Origin: Acidobacteriota bacterium
GTDB taxonomy: Bacteria > Acidobacteriota > CAIWXX01
DNA length: 64,000 nucleotides
Direction: 5' to 3'
Assembly (NCBI GenBank): GCA_040755995.1
Contig: JBFMAF010000028.1
Span: 1-64,000 of the forward strand
Of this stretch, positions 52,463 to 61,524 are shown piece by piece (the first letter of the stretch is position 1; every line of letters starts with the position of its first letter). The position numbers and the translations under genes are program-made. The notes beneath the pieces were generated by a model, which was not told where the DNA came from, ran no database searches, and was given only the letters and a program-made list of their open reading frames with translations.

Positions 52463-53353
52463 CTACTCCTCGCCGAGCAGCCGCCGCTGGGCGTGGAGCG
52501 AGGCCGAGGAGTAGGCAGGCGTGATCGCGTCCAGGAAGCGATCGGCGCCGCGCCAGAATGGGAAGGCGCCGAGGCGTCGAGGGAGCGCGGCAGCCATCGG
52601 CGGGATATGAACCTCGCCCAGCCAGCCGGTAGGGAAATCCGCACCGTGCCAGAAAGCAGCGGGAGTCGCGTCGAGCGGCTCGCCGGCCGCTTCCGACTTA
52701 TCTACGGCTGTAGTAACCTGCGCCTCCTCCGCCGCAGCCTGCGCGCGGCCGAGCCCCGCCGTCAAGTGCTCGCGTTCGACCCCGCGCAGCTTGAAGATCA
52801 GAAACGGGTCGCGGTCGAACTCCTCGCCCAACAGGTAGTACACCGCGGCGATGTGCTTGCAGGGATTGGACCAGTCAGGGCAGGAGCACTGCGTATCGAG
52901 ATCGTTGAGCCGCTCGGGGAACAGCGACATGCCAGCCCCTGTGAGAGCGCTCTCGACGTCCTTCGGCATCTCGCCTGCCAGCAGCTTCGCGGCGAAGATG
53001 GCCTGTTGCGAGATCGCTCTCATCAGCTTCGCCCTTTCGGCCTCTTTCATCGTCTTCACTTTGATCTTGACGCTGTAAGGCTTTGGGCGTGAGCCCTGGA
53101 CCTGCGCGGTGACGCCGCCTGCCTGGAGGTCTATGGACAGCACCTGTCCGCTGCGTGCGTATGATCGGCCGCGGTGCAGCCGCGCGCCTATGTCGAAGCC
53201 CTCCAGCACCTCGATCCACCGCTTCGCCCACCAGCTCTCGGCGAACTCACCGCGCTTCGCCTGAGCCTTGATTCCGCCCTTCGCCTCAATCGGGACGGAT
53301 CGCGGGTAGAAGTCGGAGTAGTCATACCTGCGACGGCGCCTCCACCATGCCAT
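52463..53353 (-). CDS. SWIM zinc finger protein
   Basis: RGRSYARSGQV, CSCPDWSNPCKHIAAVYY, DPFLIFKLRG. Confidence 0.92.
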   Translation of the reverse strand: MAWWRRRRRYDYSDFYPRSVPIEAKGGIKAQAKRGEFAESWWAKRWIEVLEGFDIGARLHRGRSYARSGQVLSIDLQAGGVTAQVQGSRPKPYSVKIKVKTMKEAERAKLMRAISQQAIFAAKLLAGEMPKDVESALTGAGMSLFPERLNDLDTQCSCPDWSNPCKHIAAVYYLLGEEFDRDPFLIFKLRGVEREHLTAGLGRAQAAAEEAQVTTAVDKSEAAGEPLDATPAAFWHGADFPTGWLGEVHIPPMAAALPRRLGAFPFWRGADRFLDAITPAYSSASLHAQRRLLGEE

Positions 53354-53387
53354 ACTCAGCCCTCACTCTTCCGAATCGATCATCGTC

Positions 53388-56300
53388 TTACTCCTGGACC
53401 GCCTCGTCGCGCAGCGCGAAGAGCTCCTTGAGCTCACTCGTGCTGAGCTCCGTCAGCCACCCCTCCCCAGTCCCGACCACCCGGGCCGAGATCTCGCTCT
53501 TCCGCTCGATCATCTCGTCTATTCTCTCTTCCACGGTTCCCTGGCAGATGAACTTGTGCACCTGCACGTTGCGGGTCTGGCCGATCCTGAATGCACGGTC
53601 AGTCGCCTGGTTTTCAACGGCCGGGTTCCACCAGCGGTCGAAATGGAAGACGTGGCTGGCGCGGGTGAGATTCAGGCCGGTGCCGCCCGCCTTCAGCGAA
53701 AGCAGGAACACAGGCGGCGCCTCGCCGTCGCCCTGGAAGCGCGCGACCATGGCGTCGCGCTGCTTCTTCGGCGTCGCGCCGTGCAAGAACAGGATCTCGC
53801 GGCCGAAGGTCTCCTGCAGGTACCGCTGCAAGATCGCACCCATCTCGGCGAACTGCGTGAAGACGAGGGCGCAATCGCCCGCGAGGATCATCTCGTCGAG
53901 CATCTCCGTGAGGCGGGCGAGCTTGCCTGAGCGTCCGGGTATCTGGCTGCCGTCGCCGAGGAGCTGAGCGGGATGGTTGCATGCCTGCTTGAGCTTCATG
54001 AGCGTCGCCAGCACCAGCCCCTTCCTCTGGATACCCTCGGCTCCATCCAGCTCCTGCTCCGCATCCCTCACCACCGCGGCGTAGAGCGATGCCTGCTCCT
54101 TCGTCAGCGGGCAGTAGACCTTCATCTCCAGCTTGTCCGGCAGATCCGCGATCACCGTCTTGTCGGTCTTCAGCCGTCTCAGGATGAACGGCCCGGTGAG
54201 GCGCTTCAGGCGCTCGACTGCATGCGGGTCCTTGTCAACCTGGATAGGAAGGAAGAACCGCCGCTTGAAGTCGCTGTTCGTGCCGAGATAGCCGGGATTG
54301 AGAAACTCCATGATCGACCACAGATCGCCGACGTTGTTCTCGACCGGCGTACCCGTCAGCGCAATGCGACAGTCGGCCTGCAGCGAGCGGGCGCATCGCG
54401 CCTGTTTCGTCTCGGGGTTCTTGATGTTCTGCGCCTCGTCGAGCACGATCGCGCCCCACGCGACGTCTTTGAACAGGTCGAAGTCGCGGTGCAGAAGCGG
54501 ATAGCTGCTCACTACGAGAGCATGCCTGGCGGCCTGCTTTCGGAAGGCCGCGCCCCTCATGCGCTCGGTCCCGTGATGGACCAGGACGGGGAGATCCGGC
54601 GTGAAGCGCTCCGCTTCCTTCTGCCAGTTGCCGGTGACCGAGGTCGGGCAGATCAGCAGCACCGGGGCGCGCCGGTTCTCCCGCCAGTCTCGCTGGATCA
54701 ACGCGAGCACCTGGATGGTCTTGCCCAGACCCATGTCGTCGGCCAGGCACGCGCCCAGTCCCCAGCGGCGCAGGAAAGCGAGCCACGAGTACCCTCGGAG
54801 CTGGTACGGTCGCAGCCGCCCTTCGAACCCCTCGGGATGGCCGAACTCCGAGTACGGAGCGCTGCCGTCGAGCTGCGCCAACAACTCCCCGATCCAACCC
54901 TCCGCCACCGCACTCTGGATCTCGACACCCGCCACCGGCGCCGCGGCGCCGAGACCCATGCGCACGATGTCTCGCACGCGCATCTGTCCGCCGCCGTTCT
55001 TCCACAGGTCGACAGCGGCGCGGATCTGGTCTGCCGACAGTTGTACCCACTGCCCCCTGAGTCGCACGAGGGGCGCCTTGAGTTTCGCCAGCGCCTCCAG
55101 CTCGGCTCGTGAGAGTGTCGCGTCCCCCAGCGCCACCTCCCAATCGAAGCCCACAACCGCGTCCAGCGTGAGACCGCTCGGGCTCTTCAGCGGCGCGCCG
55201 GCGACGCGCGCACGCGCGGCAAGCCGCAGCTTCGTGCCTCTGCCGGTCCACCATGCTGGTGCCATCACGACGAAGCCGGACTGTTCGAGGGCGGCCGCCT
55301 TCTCCGTCAGGAACTCGGAGGCGCCGGCTGTGTCGAGGGGGTAGCCCGATGGTTCGGCCGCGTTGAGGCAAGCCTCTATGCGCGGGCAGATGCCGGCGGC
55401 CTGGCCCAGCGCCGCCAGCAGATACTCCCGTGGACTCGAATCGCCACGCGGAAGCAAGACGGTTCGCGCCGTGTGATCCTTCCATATGTCGGATGCTTCT
55501 ACGAGGAGGCTCGGGTCGGCCGCTGGCTGCAGCAGAAAGCGCACGAACCAGCTCGCCAGGTCTTCCCTCTTCCGCGCGGTACGTTTCGGCCGCCCCGGCG
55601 GCTCGGCGTCCGCGCGGCCGTCGGGTTCGGGCGGCTCCTCCAGCCGGAAGCACAGCTTGACGGGCGCCGCCTCGGTCATCTGCAGCGGCAAGCGCCATGA
55701 GCGGATATCGGCGGCCAGCTTCTCGATCTCGTCATGGCCGCCCAGCATGAATCCGTCATCTTCGTGCAGCGCGTGCATCCACTGATCGTGGGTGCTGTCG
55801 AAGATGCGCCTTCGCCTGGGAGCCGGCAGCGGGGGCAATGCGGCGGAAGGGAGTCCGGACCTGACGATGTGGTCCACGACCGAGGTGAGGAACGCTGTGA
55901 GGGCCGCCGAGGGTGAGGCAGGAGGCACCTCCGGGTCGCTCGTGAGCGCGCGGGCCGAGTGGGGCATGACCGCTGCGAGTTTCTGCAAGCGATCGGCGTC
56001 GACCCCTCCGACTACCGGTTCCCATCGCGCGTACCAGCCGTCTTCCAGCCTCGCAAGGCCCGGCAAGAACTGCTGGCGTGCGACGAGCGCGGAGGCGAAT
56101 CGGAGCGCACCAGCCCAGAATCGCAGGTCGCGAGCGATGAGAACCCCCGGGCCGAGCGTCTCGCGATCAAGGCACTCGCCGAGGAGTTGCGTGGCCTGCG
56201 TTGGCGAGAGCCTCAAAGCCTCCACTGTCCACTTCGACATCACGATCTCCGAGCCCTCCTGCGGCGGCTCCGCCACCAGCGGTGTGGATGCGATGGGCCG

Positions 56301-56543
56301 CCCGTCCCGGGCCGGAATCGAGATCGTGAGGCGCTGCACGTCTCTCGTTGCGGCCCAGTTCTCGCCAAGAACGCCGGCGAGCGTACCCGTGATCGCCTTG
56401 GTGCCCGCGCCGAACGGCAGCGGATTCGCCCGGCTGGTCCTGGCCGAGCGCCCCCGCTTGCGAGCCGGTGCCGGTGTATCGACTGGCTGCTCGGCCCAGA
56501 GGAACAACTCGTGCGCAACTTGTGCGGCATGCAATACGATCAT
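53388..56543 (-). CDS. SNF2-family helicase (DUF3670-type)
   Basis: LRPYQ, LADDMGLGKT, DEAQNIKN, TGTPVEN, SLKAGGTGLNL, QATDRAFRIGQ. Confidence 0.95.
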   Translation of the reverse strand: MIVLHAAQVAHELFLWAEQPVDTPAPARKRGRSARTSRANPLPFGAGTKAITGTLAGVLGENWAATRDVQRLTISIPARDGRPIASTPLVAEPPQEGSEIVMSKWTVEALRLSPTQATQLLGECLDRETLGPGVLIARDLRFWAGALRFASALVARQQFLPGLARLEDGWYARWEPVVGGVDADRLQKLAAVMPHSARALTSDPEVPPASPSAALTAFLTSVVDHIVRSGLPSAALPPLPAPRRRRIFDSTHDQWMHALHEDDGFMLGGHDEIEKLAADIRSWRLPLQMTEAAPVKLCFRLEEPPEPDGRADAEPPGRPKRTARKREDLASWFVRFLLQPAADPSLLVEASDIWKDHTARTVLLPRGDSSPREYLLAALGQAAGICPRIEACLNAAEPSGYPLDTAGASEFLTEKAAALEQSGFVVMAPAWWTGRGTKLRLAARARVAGAPLKSPSGLTLDAVVGFDWEVALGDATLSRAELEALAKLKAPLVRLRGQWVQLSADQIRAAVDLWKNGGGQMRVRDIVRMGLGAAAPVAGVEIQSAVAEGWIGELLAQLDGSAPYSEFGHPEGFEGRLRPYQLRGYSWLAFLRRWGLGACLADDMGLGKTIQVLALIQRDWRENRRAPVLLICPTSVTGNWQKEAERFTPDLPVLVHHGTERMRGAAFRKQAARHALVVSSYPLLHRDFDLFKDVAWGAIVLDEAQNIKNPETKQARCARSLQADCRIALTGTPVENNVGDLWSIMEFLNPGYLGTNSDFKRRFFLPIQVDKDPHAVERLKRLTGPFILRRLKTDKTVIADLPDKLEMKVYCPLTKEQASLYAAVVRDAEQELDGAEGIQRKGLVLATLMKLKQACNHPAQLLGDGSQIPGRSGKLARLTEMLDEMILAGDCALVFTQFAEMGAILQRYLQETFGREILFLHGATPKKQRDAMVARFQGDGEAPPVFLLSLKAGGTGLNLTRASHVFHFDRWWNPAVENQATDRAFRIGQTRNVQVHKFICQGTVEERIDEMIERKSEISARVVGTGEGWLTELSTSELKELFALRDEAVQE

Positions 56544-56657
56544 GTGATCACCTTGCCGTCGCTTCTGCGCGACGGAGCAGACTGCGGAGCTTGTTCTGCG
56601 TGGACTCGGCCGCGCCGCTGCCGGCGCCGTCGACCCATCGCATCAGCCTCGGGTCGT

Positions 56658-59264
56658 TCATGCCGTCTCCGCGAGGCGCGCGATCCACTCCTCGGCTTCC
56701 GCGACTGCGGGCCGGGCCAGGCTTTCGTCGACTTCAACGCCCTGGGTCTCGAGGGTGGTGAGGTCGTGCAACCGCGCGAGCGCTGACGGAGCGGCGTGTG
56801 GGAGCCGGCCGCTCGGGATCAGATCGCGGTATATGCAGGCCACGAGCGCGGCGTGACCCTGTGGCGGAGCTCCCTCGGTTCGGGTGGCGATGGCCGCCGC
56901 CAGGGCCTCGTATGAGGCCCTCACCGCATCGCCCCAGAAGCCCGCATCGAGCACGACTCTGGCGAGGCGTATCCTGTTCTGGGCCCTGGCATGCGCCCTT
57001 GGTTGGGACAGTGGCGCAGGCTGCCGCGCAGGCTCCTGAGTCATCGGCACCACGATCTCGCCCGTGGCCAGGACTGCATGGGACTCCGGCTGCGGACGGG
57101 CCTCGATCTGAGCTTGAGCGGCAGGCTCGACAACAGCCTCGACGGGCTCCTGCAAGCGCGTCTCCTCCTCGGTGCCCACGATCTCTACGTCCTCGCCCGG
57201 CTCGGCTACTTGCTCGAGCACCTCATGAAGCTGCCGCAAGAACACCGAGAAACTGGCGGTTTCCACGCTCTCCACATCGCTCGACTGATCCAGCGCCGCC
57301 GTCCGAATTTCGCGCTTCCGCGACAGAGTCTGTTCGATGCCTCGCTCGATACCGCTCTCCGAGCACAGGTAGGTCGCGAAGACGCCGCGGGTCTGCCCCA
57401 GTCTGTGAGCGCGGGAGGTGCGTTGATCGAGCCGCCCGGGATTCCAGGGGAGATCGAGATGAACAACGTAGTTGGCCACCTGCAGGTTCAGCCCCACCCC
57501 GCCGGCGTCAGTTGAAAGCAGCACTCTGTGCCGATCATCGCGGCGGAAGCGGTCGAGGAGCGCCGGGCGCTTGTCGGTCGGAACTCCTCCGTGAAGCATC
57601 GCGTAGCCGATCGACTGGCCATCGAGCCGGTCAGCGGCCAGATTGAGCATCTGCACCCACTCGGAGAACACGAGCACCTTGCTCTCACCCTGCGAGGCGA
57701 TTTCGGAGATCAGGGCTTCGAACTCGTCGAGTTTTGGAGATGCCTTCGTCCTACTTGCCGGATCGCAGAGCTCCAGCGCGTTGCACGCCTGCCTCGCCTT
57801 GAGCAGCAGCGCCTGAAGCTTCTTCTGCTCGTCGGGACGCAGCGGTCTTCTTTCGGCGATGGCCATCAGGCGCGCCGCATCGGCGCGATAAGCCGATTCC
57901 AGGTCGGCCTGCTCTTTCGTCAACGGCGTGTATCGGGTCTGCTCGGTGAGCGACGGAAGCTGCGAAAGCACCTCCTCCTTGCGGCGCCGGAGCACTACTG
58001 GCTCGACTCGCTTGCGGAGGGACGAGAGGTTCTTGCAACCGATGATCTTGCCCTTGTCATTCTGGTGGTGGAAGTCGAGATTGAATCTCCAGAGTGGCCC
58101 CAAGACCTCGGGATCGATGAGCTGCAGCAACGAATAGAGATCGTCGAGGCGATTCTCGATGGGCGTGCCGGTCAAGACGAAGAGGAACCGTGATGGGATC
58201 GCGCGCAGAGTCTTCGCCGTCTTCGTTCGGAAGTTCTTGGCGCGCTGTGCTTCGTCGAGGATGAGAATATCGGTGTCGAGGTCCTGCAGGCGAGGGAGCT
58301 CTTTCCAGGTCAGCTCGTAGTTGAGCACCTTGTACGGGGCGTCCGACTCGAAGGCGGCTCGCCGGCCATGAAGTCCGCCTCCGACGACGGCTGCCCTGAC
58401 GTTGGCGTAGCGTTCGATCTCCTTGGCCCACTGGTGCTTCAACGATGCCGGCGTCACGACCACGACTCGATTCACTTCGCCGCGTGCTCTGAGGACCTCG
58501 CACGCAGCAATGGCCTGCACGGTCTTTCCGAGCCCCATGTCGTCGGCCAGGAGTGCGCGACCGGACGAGGCGAGGTGTTTCACGCCGTCGTGCTGGTATG
58601 GAAACAGCGGTCGCGCGAGGACGTCGACGCCGATGCGTCCATCGACGAGCGCGCGCAGCAGACCATCGCGGCGCCCGTCGGTCCGCGCCCTGGCCCGGAT
58701 TCGTTCGACGGCGGGCATGACCGCATGGACGACCCGCACCGCGTGTTCGTTCCACGCCTGATCTGGAGAAACCGGCGCTTCCCACTCGACGAACCCGCCG
58801 TCGCCGCCGGTCGTCAGCCCGAGGGCATCGAGCTGCTGGCGTGTCCATCGCCCGGCGGTCCGCAGTCGAATCCTGCCTCGGGCATCTACGGTGAGCGTTG
58901 GAATGAGGGGCGACTGAGGTAGCTGCTGCCAGGCACGGCGTGGACGCGGGATGGAAGTCAAGGCACGAGAGACGGCCTCGAGGTGCTTGCACGTGCCCAG
59001 CTCGTTGCTCAGGAAATCGGGGCAGGAGCATGTGTCATGACTGTGGCTCCCGTCGACGACGTCGACGAGGTAGGCGCCGCCGCTGGCCCCCGCCACCTCA
59101 TAGCACCCATCGATCCGATCGTCTCGCGGCGTCACGATGAAAGGCTCCGAGTAAGCTCGATGCCGCCGCACCTCGCGCTCGTACATCACCACGGCCTCCG
59201 CGCTCTCGAAATCCGAGCACACCGGTGCCGTACGTCTCACCGGAAGCAATCGAATCGACTTCAT
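56658..59264 (-). CDS. SWIM-SNF2 helicase with C-terminal HEPN-like helical domain
   Basis: CSCPDF..CKH; LADDMGLGKT, DEAQ, STDAGGVGLNLQ, QRTSRAHRLGQ; tail ARVVLDAGFWGDAVRASYEA. Confidence 0.9.
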   Translation of the reverse strand: MKSIRLLPVRRTAPVCSDFESAEAVVMYEREVRRHRAYSEPFIVTPRDDRIDGCYEVAGASGGAYLVDVVDGSHSHDTCSCPDFLSNELGTCKHLEAVSRALTSIPRPRRAWQQLPQSPLIPTLTVDARGRIRLRTAGRWTRQQLDALGLTTGGDGGFVEWEAPVSPDQAWNEHAVRVVHAVMPAVERIRARARTDGRRDGLLRALVDGRIGVDVLARPLFPYQHDGVKHLASSGRALLADDMGLGKTVQAIAACEVLRARGEVNRVVVVTPASLKHQWAKEIERYANVRAAVVGGGLHGRRAAFESDAPYKVLNYELTWKELPRLQDLDTDILILDEAQRAKNFRTKTAKTLRAIPSRFLFVLTGTPIENRLDDLYSLLQLIDPEVLGPLWRFNLDFHHQNDKGKIIGCKNLSSLRKRVEPVVLRRRKEEVLSQLPSLTEQTRYTPLTKEQADLESAYRADAARLMAIAERRPLRPDEQKKLQALLLKARQACNALELCDPASRTKASPKLDEFEALISEIASQGESKVLVFSEWVQMLNLAADRLDGQSIGYAMLHGGVPTDKRPALLDRFRRDDRHRVLLSTDAGGVGLNLQVANYVVHLDLPWNPGRLDQRTSRAHRLGQTRGVFATYLCSESGIERGIEQTLSRKREIRTAALDQSSDVESVETASFSVFLRQLHEVLEQVAEPGEDVEIVGTEEETRLQEPVEAVVEPAAQAQIEARPQPESHAVLATGEIVVPMTQEPARQPAPLSQPRAHARAQNRIRLARVVLDAGFWGDAVRASYEALAAAIATRTEGAPPQGHAALVACIYRDLIPSGRLPHAAPSALARLHDLTTLETQGVEVDESLARPAVAEAEEWIARLAETA

Positions 59265-60018: not shown

Positions 60019-60056
60019 CACGACTTCGCGGCGCCGCCTGACCCGCGCCGGGCGCG

Positions 60057-60197
60057 CTACCGAGAGGAGGGCTTTGGCCTGTAGTCGCGACGGTCGAGGC
60101 ACGAGTATGTATGGCCGAACGCGTCTCGTGCAGAATGGTAGAGATTCTGGCCGTCGAAGAATTCCACGGCTCGCTTGACGGATGCTTCTGCTGGCAT
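60057..60197 (-). pseudogene. Miniature NYN-domain ORF, copy A (46 aa)
   Basis: MPAEASVKRAVEFFDGQNLYHSARDAFGHTYSCLDRRDYRPKPSSR; FxDGQNLY is the first NYN catalytic motif. Confidence 0.7.
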
Positions 60198-60219
60198 TCT
60201 CAGGTCCCGAAATGGATAA

Positions 60220-60252
60220 CCCCGCCCGGGCCTACCGGCGTGTCGAGCGGGG
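60220..60252 (-). ncRNA. Conserved structured RNA hairpin, copy A
   Basis: CCCCGC-UCG-ACAC-GCC-GGUA-GGC-C-CGG-GCGGGG between a TTGACA-17-TATGTT promoter (60298-60270) and the ATG. Confidence 0.6.
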
Positions 60253-60361
60253 AGCAAGTGTGCACTAGAAACATAAGACCGTGCGTGCTCGCTGTCAACT
60301 GCCCAGTGCAGCGGCAGTCAGTCTCTTGACGCTCCGGGTATTCACATGTCATACTCTGGAC

Positions 60362-60598
60362 ATGAAGATTGCGATTTCCGTTCCAGATCCTGTGTTCGAG
60401 GCCGCGGAGCGCATGTCGCGCCGAATGCGCGTGTCGCGAAGCCGTCTGTATGCCAAAGCAGTTGAAGACTACGTGAACAGACACTCGGGCGAGGAGATTA
60501 CCGCGCAACTCGACAGGGTGTATTCGCGGACCTCATCGAAGCTCGATCCTGCCATTGAGAGAGGGACGCTGGAGGTGCTCCGGCGGGAGGGACGGTAG
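60362..60598 (+). CDS. RHH antitoxin (ChpI/MazE-like)
   Basis: MKIAISVPDPVFEAAE..SRSRLYAKAV..ITAQLDRVY. Confidence 0.88.
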   Translation: MKIAISVPDPVFEAAERMSRRMRVSRSRLYAKAVEDYVNRHSGEEITAQLDRVYSRTSSKLDPAIERGTLEVLRREGR

Positions 60599-60936
60599 TG
60601 AATCGAGGAGACATCTGGTGGGCGGATTTCGGCATGCCGTTCGGTTCGGAGCCCGGCTACAGGCGCCCCGTCCTTGTGCTCCAAGCGGATCAATTCAATC
60701 GCAGCCGCATCCAGACGGTGATAGTGGTGCCCATGTCGGGCAACACTCGCCTGGCTGAGGCCCCCGGGAACGTGCTCTGCCGGCCTGGAGACACCGGGCT
60801 CGAGAAACTATCCGTCGCGAACGTCTCTCAGCTCGCGGTAATCGACAGGAAGCGCCTGCAGGAGAGAATGGGGACACTTCCGCCGCGGCTGTTGACACAA
60901 GTCGAAGAAGGCGTGCGTCTCGTCCTCGATCTCTGA
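60598..60936 (+). CDS. mazF: PemK/MazF family toxin
   Basis: RGDIWWAD..GSEPGYRRPVLVLQ..FN..SVANVSQL. Confidence 0.92.
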   Translation: MNRGDIWWADFGMPFGSEPGYRRPVLVLQADQFNRSRIQTVIVVPMSGNTRLAEAPGNVLCRPGDTGLEKLSVANVSQLAVIDRKRLQERMGTLPPRLLTQVEEGVRLVLDL

Positions 60937-60951
60937 GCCGCGCCGGGCGCG

Positions 60952-61092
60952 CTACTGTGCGGTGGACTTTGCTTTATAGCCGCGACGGTCGAGGCACGAG
61001 TATGTATGGCCGAACGCCTCTCGTGGCGAACGGCGTAGATTCCGGCCATGCACCACGTCGACAGCCCGCTGGACCGGTGGTGCTGCCGGCAT
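60952..61092 (-). pseudogene. Miniature NYN-domain ORF, copy B (46 aa, catalytic Asp lost)
   Basis: MPAAPPVQRAVDVVHGRNLRRSPREAFGHTYSCLDRRGYKAKSTAQ; 37 bp identical to copy A. Confidence 0.65.
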
Positions 61093-61116
61093 ATATGCCC
61101 TCACAGGAAGAAATAA

Positions 61117-61156
61117 CCCCGATCGAGGCCTGACGAAGCAGGCGTGTCAAGCGGGG
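61117..61156 (-). ncRNA. Conserved structured RNA hairpin, copy B
   Basis: CCCCG-C-UUGA-CAC-GCCUG-CUUCGU-CAGGC-C-UCGA-U-CGGGG. Confidence 0.55.
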
Positions 61157-61251
61157 CGCATAGCATGTGCGAAGCACTCGGGAGCCGAGTGGTACACGTT
61201 CTGCCCGTCGATGAATACCACGACTCGCTTGACGGGTGGTTCTGTTGGCAT
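61147..61251 (-). pseudogene. NYN N-terminal fragment, copy C (34 aa)
   Basis: MPTEPPVKRVVVFIDGQNVYHSAPECFAHAMRPA. Confidence 0.7.
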
Positions 61252-61272
61252 TCCTGGTCCAGAGATGGATAA

Positions 61273-61305
61273 CCCCGCCCGGGCCTCGCGGCGTGTCGAG
61301 CGGGG
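61273..61305 (-). ncRNA. Conserved structured RNA hairpin, copy C
   Basis: CCCCGC-UCG-ACAC-GCC-GCGA-GGC-C-CGG-GCGGGG downstream of a TTGACA-17-TATGTT promoter (61349-61321). Confidence 0.6.
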
Positions 61306-61524
61306 AGCAAGTGCAGTCACAACATAAGACCCTGGGGCCTTGCTGTCAACGGTCCATCATCAATCAAGACGTCGTCGAGTAGCTATTGACAATAGATGGG
61401 GTGTGCACCTTAGGGGTGCGGCCCGCGGAGGCGCGTGCGTTGAAACCGATCTGAATCGGCACTGCCCCCAGTGCAGGCCGCGCCCCGCGCGGGCGCGTGG
61501 ATGGCATTGCGAGTGAGGGCCCGC

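Follow-up and report, generated by a model that had tools for sequence, protein, structure and literature searches.

Comparison with homologous loci in other genomes identifies the three small units found near one end of the window (the whole 64-kb stretch of DNA that was analysed) as pseudogene remnants of an RNA–NYN module, the parent form of which consists, in order, of a sigma70-type promoter, a covarying hairpin of ~52 nt with a U-tract and an NYN gene. Along the minus strand the remnants are arranged as promoter, RNA C, stub C, RNA B and mini gene B, followed, on the far side of a mazEF-type pair on the plus strand, by promoter, RNA A and mini gene A. The features of the region, in window coordinates, are as follows.

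61321..61349, minus strand: unit C promoter, sigma70-type, TTGACA-17-TATGTT (promoter scan and the family's fixed promoter spacing)
61263..61313, minus strand: RNA C, with conserved leader, bulged hairpin and weak U-tract (covariance model, 59.7 bits)
61147..61251, minus strand: ORF C, 34 aa, 5′ stub of an NYN gene with ~29 homologous codons
61107..61164, minus strand: RNA B, with a longer inner loop, one broken pair and no promoter of its own (36.1 bits)
60952..61092, minus strand: ORF B, 46 aa, NYN gene with an internal deletion and a decayed N-terminus
60981..61017, minus strand: 37-nt block across the B deletion junction, identical to that of A
60598..60936, plus strand: mazF/pemK-family toxin gene, between B and A (PF02452, E 1e-27)
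60362..60598, plus strand: ribbon-helix-helix antitoxin-like gene (weak RHH_3 match, E 0.037; start codon inferred)
60326-60355: promoter-like site of the ribbon-helix-helix antitoxin-like gene (promoter scan)
60270..60298, minus strand: unit A promoter, sigma70-type, TTGACA-17-TATGTT (promoter scan)
60210..60260, minus strand: RNA A, with conserved leader, bulged hairpin and weak U-tract (61.7 bits)
60057..60197, minus strand: ORF A, 46 aa, NYN gene lacking ~165 codons through an in-frame internal deletion
60086..60122, minus strand: 37-nt block across the A deletion junction
60038..60060, minus strand: 23-nt stretch at and after the A stop, 22 of 23 positions identical to 60933-60955 after B

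The initial annotation of this DNA had assigned TTGACA-17-TATGTT promoters to units A and C, and both were found, at 60298-60270 and 61349-61321 of the minus strand, in a region that contains six promoter-like sites where 0.7 would be expected. Read-through from the unit C promoter into B would also be expected. The same annotation had described three hairpins, and a covariance model built from other genomes gave exactly three matches in the window, at 60260-60210 (E 3e-14), 61313-61263 (1e-13) and 61164-61107 (4e-7); the whole host genome yielded these three only, 150 of 7491 first-look candidates having been scored. Because the window hairpins are only a little more stable than shuffled sequences (z values of -1.6 to -2.6 alone and -0.7 to -2.1 with flanks), their reality rests on this comparison across genomes. 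The U-tracts of RNAs A and C are weak, a terminator scan called neither, and an Rfam scan of the window region gave no relevant match. ORFs A and B are both exactly 46 aa, as had been stated, and the start codons, which had been placed approx. 22–25 nt after the hairpin, lie 21–24 nt after the stem, a close agreement. ORF C is broken at the start of RNA B, and its frame continues into the B hairpin.

Downstream of this region on the minus strand, the window also holds two genes for SNF2-family helicases and one for a SWIM-finger protein (52463-59264), a palindromic stretch directly after a clan AA aspartic protease gene (59470-59400; TIGR03698), which by eye resembles a decayed integron attC site, and a promoter-bearing element of ~90 nt (59970-59890) with TTGACG-17-TATCAT and conserved downstream bases. 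The last of these has eight copies in the host genome (G000), before unrelated genes, the further copies lying on contigs C55 (twice), C56, C9, C4, C31 and C38. Several of the genes behind it look by eye like defence or toxin genes, and two copies lie near a frame that is presumably an IS110-like transposase.

The structure of the leader RNA was derived from 56 distinct sequences and consists of a 10-bp stem, a 3-by-1 internal loop, a capped stem of 3 bp and a U-rich tail. Nine of the 13 pairs show two-sided changes and 99.6% of cells are paired; none of 500 shuffles scored as high, a control that is inflated by the relatedness of the sequences, and slid controls, at no more than two pairs, were far lower too. 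The stem tolerates G-U pairs and is followed by the U-tract. In addition, four unpaired bases are almost invariant, namely an A and two Ts of the leader (each 55/56) and the bulged C (54/56), and this conservation appears to be more than a plain terminator would need. In 46 of 82 loci the motif TTG[AC][CT] begins 35–38 nt upstream of this conserved A, and as the promoter thus lies at a fixed distance from that base, the RNA would form the 5′ end of the transcript. We predict a transcript of ~55 nt that ends in a terminator, with read-through into the gene.

A pattern search for the RNA returned 62 loci across many phyla, and to avoid circularity loci were then picked by protein. The RNA precedes 79 of 80 metagenome genes selected in this way, the best 80 of 581 and therefore biased to intact loci, and the single exception lacks non-coding DNA upstream; 33 of these 80 genes lie outside the training alignment and some are identical to training rows. 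In one of these loci the RNA lies ~190 nt upstream and in another there are two RNA copies. All five close viral homologues have the RNA, two of them weakly, and three distant viral homologues are without it. An Rfam scan of 13 related loci found no match, and our literature search, confined to papers outside subscription, came upon no account of an RNA associated with NYN genes. The main text of one preprint on intergenic clustering (10.64898/2026.10.21.760802) does not mention NYN or LabA in the part available, and the RNA may be present in its supplements or in its 20,149-cluster database. The RNA–NYN module is thus apparently undescribed.

The full-length family was aligned in 25 rows, in which D14, D117, D142 and D144 are invariant, their active-site role being taken from the wider family. 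Full-length parents scored 49.6 and 32.8 bits with Pfam NYN (PF01936; cut-off 24.2), and the predicted fold of a family protein (pLDDT 91.9) found as its best PDB match the NYN structure 2qip (E 4e-6, TM 0.65 by target). A sequence search of the PDB found no relative of the full-length protein and NCBIfam holds no family for it; identity between family proteins is ~63% at the median. Pfam NYN, the fold and the invariant acidic residues are shared with LabA-like NYN proteins (NYN.COG1432/PF01936, 2qip; PMC5499597), whereas the present subfamily carries in addition conserved motifs at both termini and a long hairpin insert. Thousands of LabA-like NYN proteins are known from bacteria, and they were listed as ‘function unknown’; those described so far are not known as toxins, and the available text of the same source does not mention an upstream RNA (PMC5499597). 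One full-length gene (L027) has its first catalytic Asp replaced by Asn, and its genome carries an intact copy (L028). Distant NYN genes with ~25% identity (L157, L158, L176, L178, L179, L180, L181 and L189) have two-hairpin leaders, and in L157 and L158 the first hairpin resembles the 52-nt RNA and is followed by a separate terminator. By eye, approx. 10 distant NYN loci among 16 folded loci have a hairpin or two-hairpin leader ending in a U-tract.

When aligned with a full-length protein, ORF A matches residues 2–34 and 196–204, ~165 codons being gone, and in both A and B residue ~30 of an NYN/LabA RNase of ~210 aa is joined to residue ~196. This deletion removes three of the four acidic active-site residues; the first aspartate is the only one left in A and C and is absent from B. 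Residues unseen in 19 family rows number seven in B (including the catalytic Asp), four in C and one in A. In a relative (G031) the same hairpin is followed by a frame of 216 aa that starts and ends like A. The initial annotation had proposed that the peptides join the N- and C-termini of an NYN gene and that full-length homologues carry the upstream hairpin; alignment to such homologues bears out the first proposal and the same hairpin stands before them, so that the two findings that would have counted against the annotation, peptides unlike NYN termini or homologues lacking the hairpin, were not made. A search of the host genome (99.8% complete) with PF01936 gave no match, and ORFs A, B and C have no complete domain with active site.

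Loss of the gene with survival of the RNA is frequent elsewhere. Of the 62 pattern matches, four were dropped by eye as chance (L035, L042, L051 and L058); among the 58 kept, the RNA precedes a full frame in 32, a broken or stub gene in 11 and no detectable gene in 15, i.e. 26 of 58 RNA loci are without an intact gene. Within the host phylum, the protein was used to search 401 genomes and the RNA to search 390, the two sets overlapping largely; the RNA stands before each of the 11 intact close homologues (nine of these RNAs are in the training set), and 12 of 23 kept RNA copies are without an intact gene, three of the 12 being the units of the window. Eight weak model matches (G039, G057, G060, G176, G223, G293, G335 and G382) were dropped, and the five that were read have no NYN gene. 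Not counted among the 11 is a more distant intact gene in G166 (E 2e-58), the divergent hairpin of which gave no model match at E 0.001; the G134 gene is intact, its stop being the natural one. Six other internal deletions with different breakpoints were found (L016, L024, L031, P0120, G355 and G368). That in G355 preserves the frame, giving a mini gene of 64 aa whose promoter and RNA are intact, and is joined at a repeated QN microhomology, QN being the commonest motif at the far site of this junction; several of the others are out of frame. As the same wreck occurs in other genomes with these six other breakpoints, the mini genes of the window would thus be one outcome of a recurrent process and not a conserved product. 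We discarded the idea of a fixed hot spot for breakage, since break positions vary from the first few codons up to codon ~105. Among the top 120 short homologues, 107 are C-terminal halves, the upstream DNA of which lies outside view.

Given these findings, the reading that we favour, and to which we would give slightly better than an even chance, is that the module is a type III-like toxin–antitoxin system with a PIN-fold toxin, which has been repeatedly disabled while its RNA survives. Most transcription would stop at the U-tract to give an abundant RNA of ~55 nt, read-through would yield a small amount of NYN protein, and the RNA would bind the predicted RNase and keep it inactive until transcription ceases, for instance on phage attack, as with AbiF and ToxIN. 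Cells may rid themselves of the toxin through loss or truncation of its gene; promoter and RNA, being harmless, would persist and may sometimes drive other toxin–antitoxin genes. In the window this would have produced stub C and the internal deletions of A and B, so that the three units would be disabled remnants of a promoter–52-nt hairpin RNA–NYN module. The conserved unpaired bases, the lack of intact close homologues without the RNA and the frequent loss of the gene alone all fit this proposal. A resemblance to type III organization had been noted initially, and both the layout and the pattern of loss agree with it, the function being a prediction: promoter, non-coding RNA, terminator and a gene in the toxin position occur in one unit, with termination predicted from sequence. 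Units A and C, which keep their promoters, are possible RNA antitoxin donors. The recurrent internal deletions and the restriction–modification neighbours of some intact genes also favour the proposal. Against a toxin, the asymmetry of loss would also be expected if expression simply required the leader; the weak U-tracts of A and C, the housekeeping neighbours of many intact genes and the rarity of the family in viral contigs and plasmids likewise count against this reading.

The most serious alternative, which we consider rather unlikely, is that the leader acts only in cis, as a terminator or attenuator that is bound or cut by the NYN protein to limit its own synthesis; the protein would then be an accessory RNase of defence islands and not an addictive toxin, and the units of the window ordinary pseudogenes. 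That the RNA is itself the terminator speaks for this, the conserved unpaired bases would suit an autoregulatory site, and the leader is reused before other genes, e.g. YhcG/DUF1016 and AbiEi. In addition, the nearest tested relative, the distant HEC-09 (PADLOC PDLC04163; E 1e-14), gave no phage protection (bioRxiv 2024.01.29.577857). HEC-09 resembles the present genes in being an NYN gene within multi-gene defence systems, but it occurs in Hma systems and RNA is not mentioned in the part of the source available (bioRxiv 2024.01.29.577857). However, a cis-only leader does not by itself explain the rate at which the gene alone is lost (12/23 and 26/58), nor the repeated deletion of the catalytic core, although mobile genes often decay.

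Under the toxin–antitoxin reading, the closest parallel is AbiF with RCd22 (RF03085; PMC12373285), in which a short terminated RNA limits read-through and neutralizes the toxin in trans, and also acts in cis. According to the available text of that source, the two have in common a promoter of their own, a short terminated non-coding RNA and read-through into a nuclease gene; they differ in that the toxin of AbiF belongs to the Abi_2 family and is linked to Cas13, whereas the protein here has the NYN/PIN fold, and in that RCd22, at ~100 nt, carries two motifs upstream of a distinct terminator, whereas here one bulged hairpin of ~52 nt is the terminator (PMC12373285). The abiF motif (RF03085) had no Rfam match in the window region or in the 13 other loci, and AbiF membership is not indicated. 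ToxIN, CptIN and TenpIN share the order promoter, RNA, terminator and RNase, and in type III loci, as described in the part of PMC3401426 available, shortened toxin genes (66 and 45 aa) are likewise retained after full antitoxins. Their antitoxins, in contrast, are tandem pseudoknot repeats and their toxins ToxN-family, compared with a single hairpin directly after the promoter and an NYN protein here (PMC3401426). Moreover, ToxI lies upstream of a separate terminator, whereas here the single-copy RNA is itself the terminator. As the module is without tandem repeats, the abiF motif and the toxin folds of these systems, it does not appear to be a member of ToxIN, CptIN, TenpIN or AbiF.

As for genomic neighbours, the beginning of a DUF1156, HsdM, HsdS, DNA-methylase or GmrSD gene lies behind 22 of 92 intact genes; 10 of these 22 are self-matches of the chosen references, and the remaining 12 include many short stubs. 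PrrC is an RNase encoded inside the EcoprrI type I restriction–modification operon, where it is a possible back-up, and the NYN module resembles it in placement; unlike the module, PrrC lacks a promoter–RNA leader of its own and is kept silent by the restriction complex. At eight loci (L082, L084, L088, L093, L099, L100, L102 and L141) an intact NYN gene is followed by only the first 17–40 codons of a DUF1156 gene, as if the module had outlived or left its operon. Many intact NYN genes have housekeeping neighbours, and the family is rare in viral contigs and plasmids, with eight viral loci and one of 72,556 plasmid records. In several cases orphan RNAs lie before or next to genes of toxin–antitoxin type (nucleotidyltransferase, ParE partner, Rv0078B antitoxin, PIN and HicAB). 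In G079 and G275 the order is RNA, cargo gene (YhcG/DUF1016 and AbiEi respectively), RNA and intact NYN gene, much like RNA B, mazEF and RNA A in the window, and an RNA–cargo gene–RNA layout is also present in L103. In two genomes of one family, at L194 (G079) and L218 (G329), promoter and RNA are followed by the first ~13 NYN-like codons fused in frame to a YhcG/DUF1016 gene.

These layouts, together with the frequent position of orphan hairpins before toxin–antitoxin genes and the 23-nt stretch common to the 3′ ends of A and B, might suggest a non-autonomous mobile repeat or recombination site, with the hairpin acting at the DNA level. We regard this as quite improbable: the genome has three copies only, all at one spot, the stem tolerates G-U pairs and is followed by a U-tract as expected of RNA, the promoter keeps a fixed distance, breakpoints vary between genomes and the intact genes listed share no common 3′ end. 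A non-autonomous repeat had been suggested initially, and we did not find it supported, in that the A/B junction was not seen in viral contigs, in the related loci examined or among short proteins, and the pattern is not that of a MITE, which would show dispersed copies with fixed ends.

ORFs A and B differ at 34 of 141 nt with no indels, and the run of 37 identical nt that had been noticed initially was confirmed and is centred on the junction. Runs of 37 nt or more arose in 28 of 200,000 codon-aware permutations, and none of 4,516 family pairs at comparable divergence is identical over the same two motifs, which suggests that duplication and drift alone do not account for the identity. As the inner loop of RNA B differs from that of A and the flanking codons differ at many third positions, B probably derives from a different paralogue than A. 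The simplest reading is that the A junction was copied into B by recombination (gene conversion) through two conserved motifs. We also considered whether the shared blocks form a conserved RNA structure and rejected this, as the folds of the blocks differ.

A different account of the identity, that the 46-aa products are selected mini-proteins such as dominant-negative inhibitors made from two family-specific motifs, would suit the preserved frames of A and B, free of indels and identical across the junction, and the in-frame mini gene of G355. It is nevertheless very improbable: no short homologue of A was found among proteins of 25–81 aa, the junction was not found again in viral contigs or in the related loci examined, seven residues of B and four of C do not occur in the aligned family, several of the deletions elsewhere shift the frame, and the 12 codons without any synonymous change look like the result of DNA copying and not of selection on a protein. 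That assembly or polishing confused two similar copies, as the unusual 37-nt identity might suggest, is scarcely credible, given that the copies differ by ~30% on both sides of the block and comparable deletions occur in unrelated assemblies.

Extending the toxin–antitoxin reading to the wider family, we tentatively propose, at somewhat less than an even chance, that there is a large, undescribed class of RNA-neutralized toxins, made up of NYN/LabA RNases with promoter-proximal hairpin RNAs, which would be the first type III-like class with a PIN-fold enzyme and with a single-terminator-hairpin antitoxin among the smallest. Such modules might serve as back-up defence in restriction–modification operons and their disabled copies as orphan antitoxins against incoming copies; the A deletion may have been gene-converted into a paralogue, and the two-hairpin leaders of distant NYN clades could represent an ancestral unfused form. 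The wrecks in the window are of value in that they expose the module and show the route of its loss, and the conserved 52-nt RNA tied to one NYN subfamily gives a handle on the function of LabA-like proteins. If the toxin–antitoxin reading is true, RNA-antitoxin systems would extend to a new nuclease fold.
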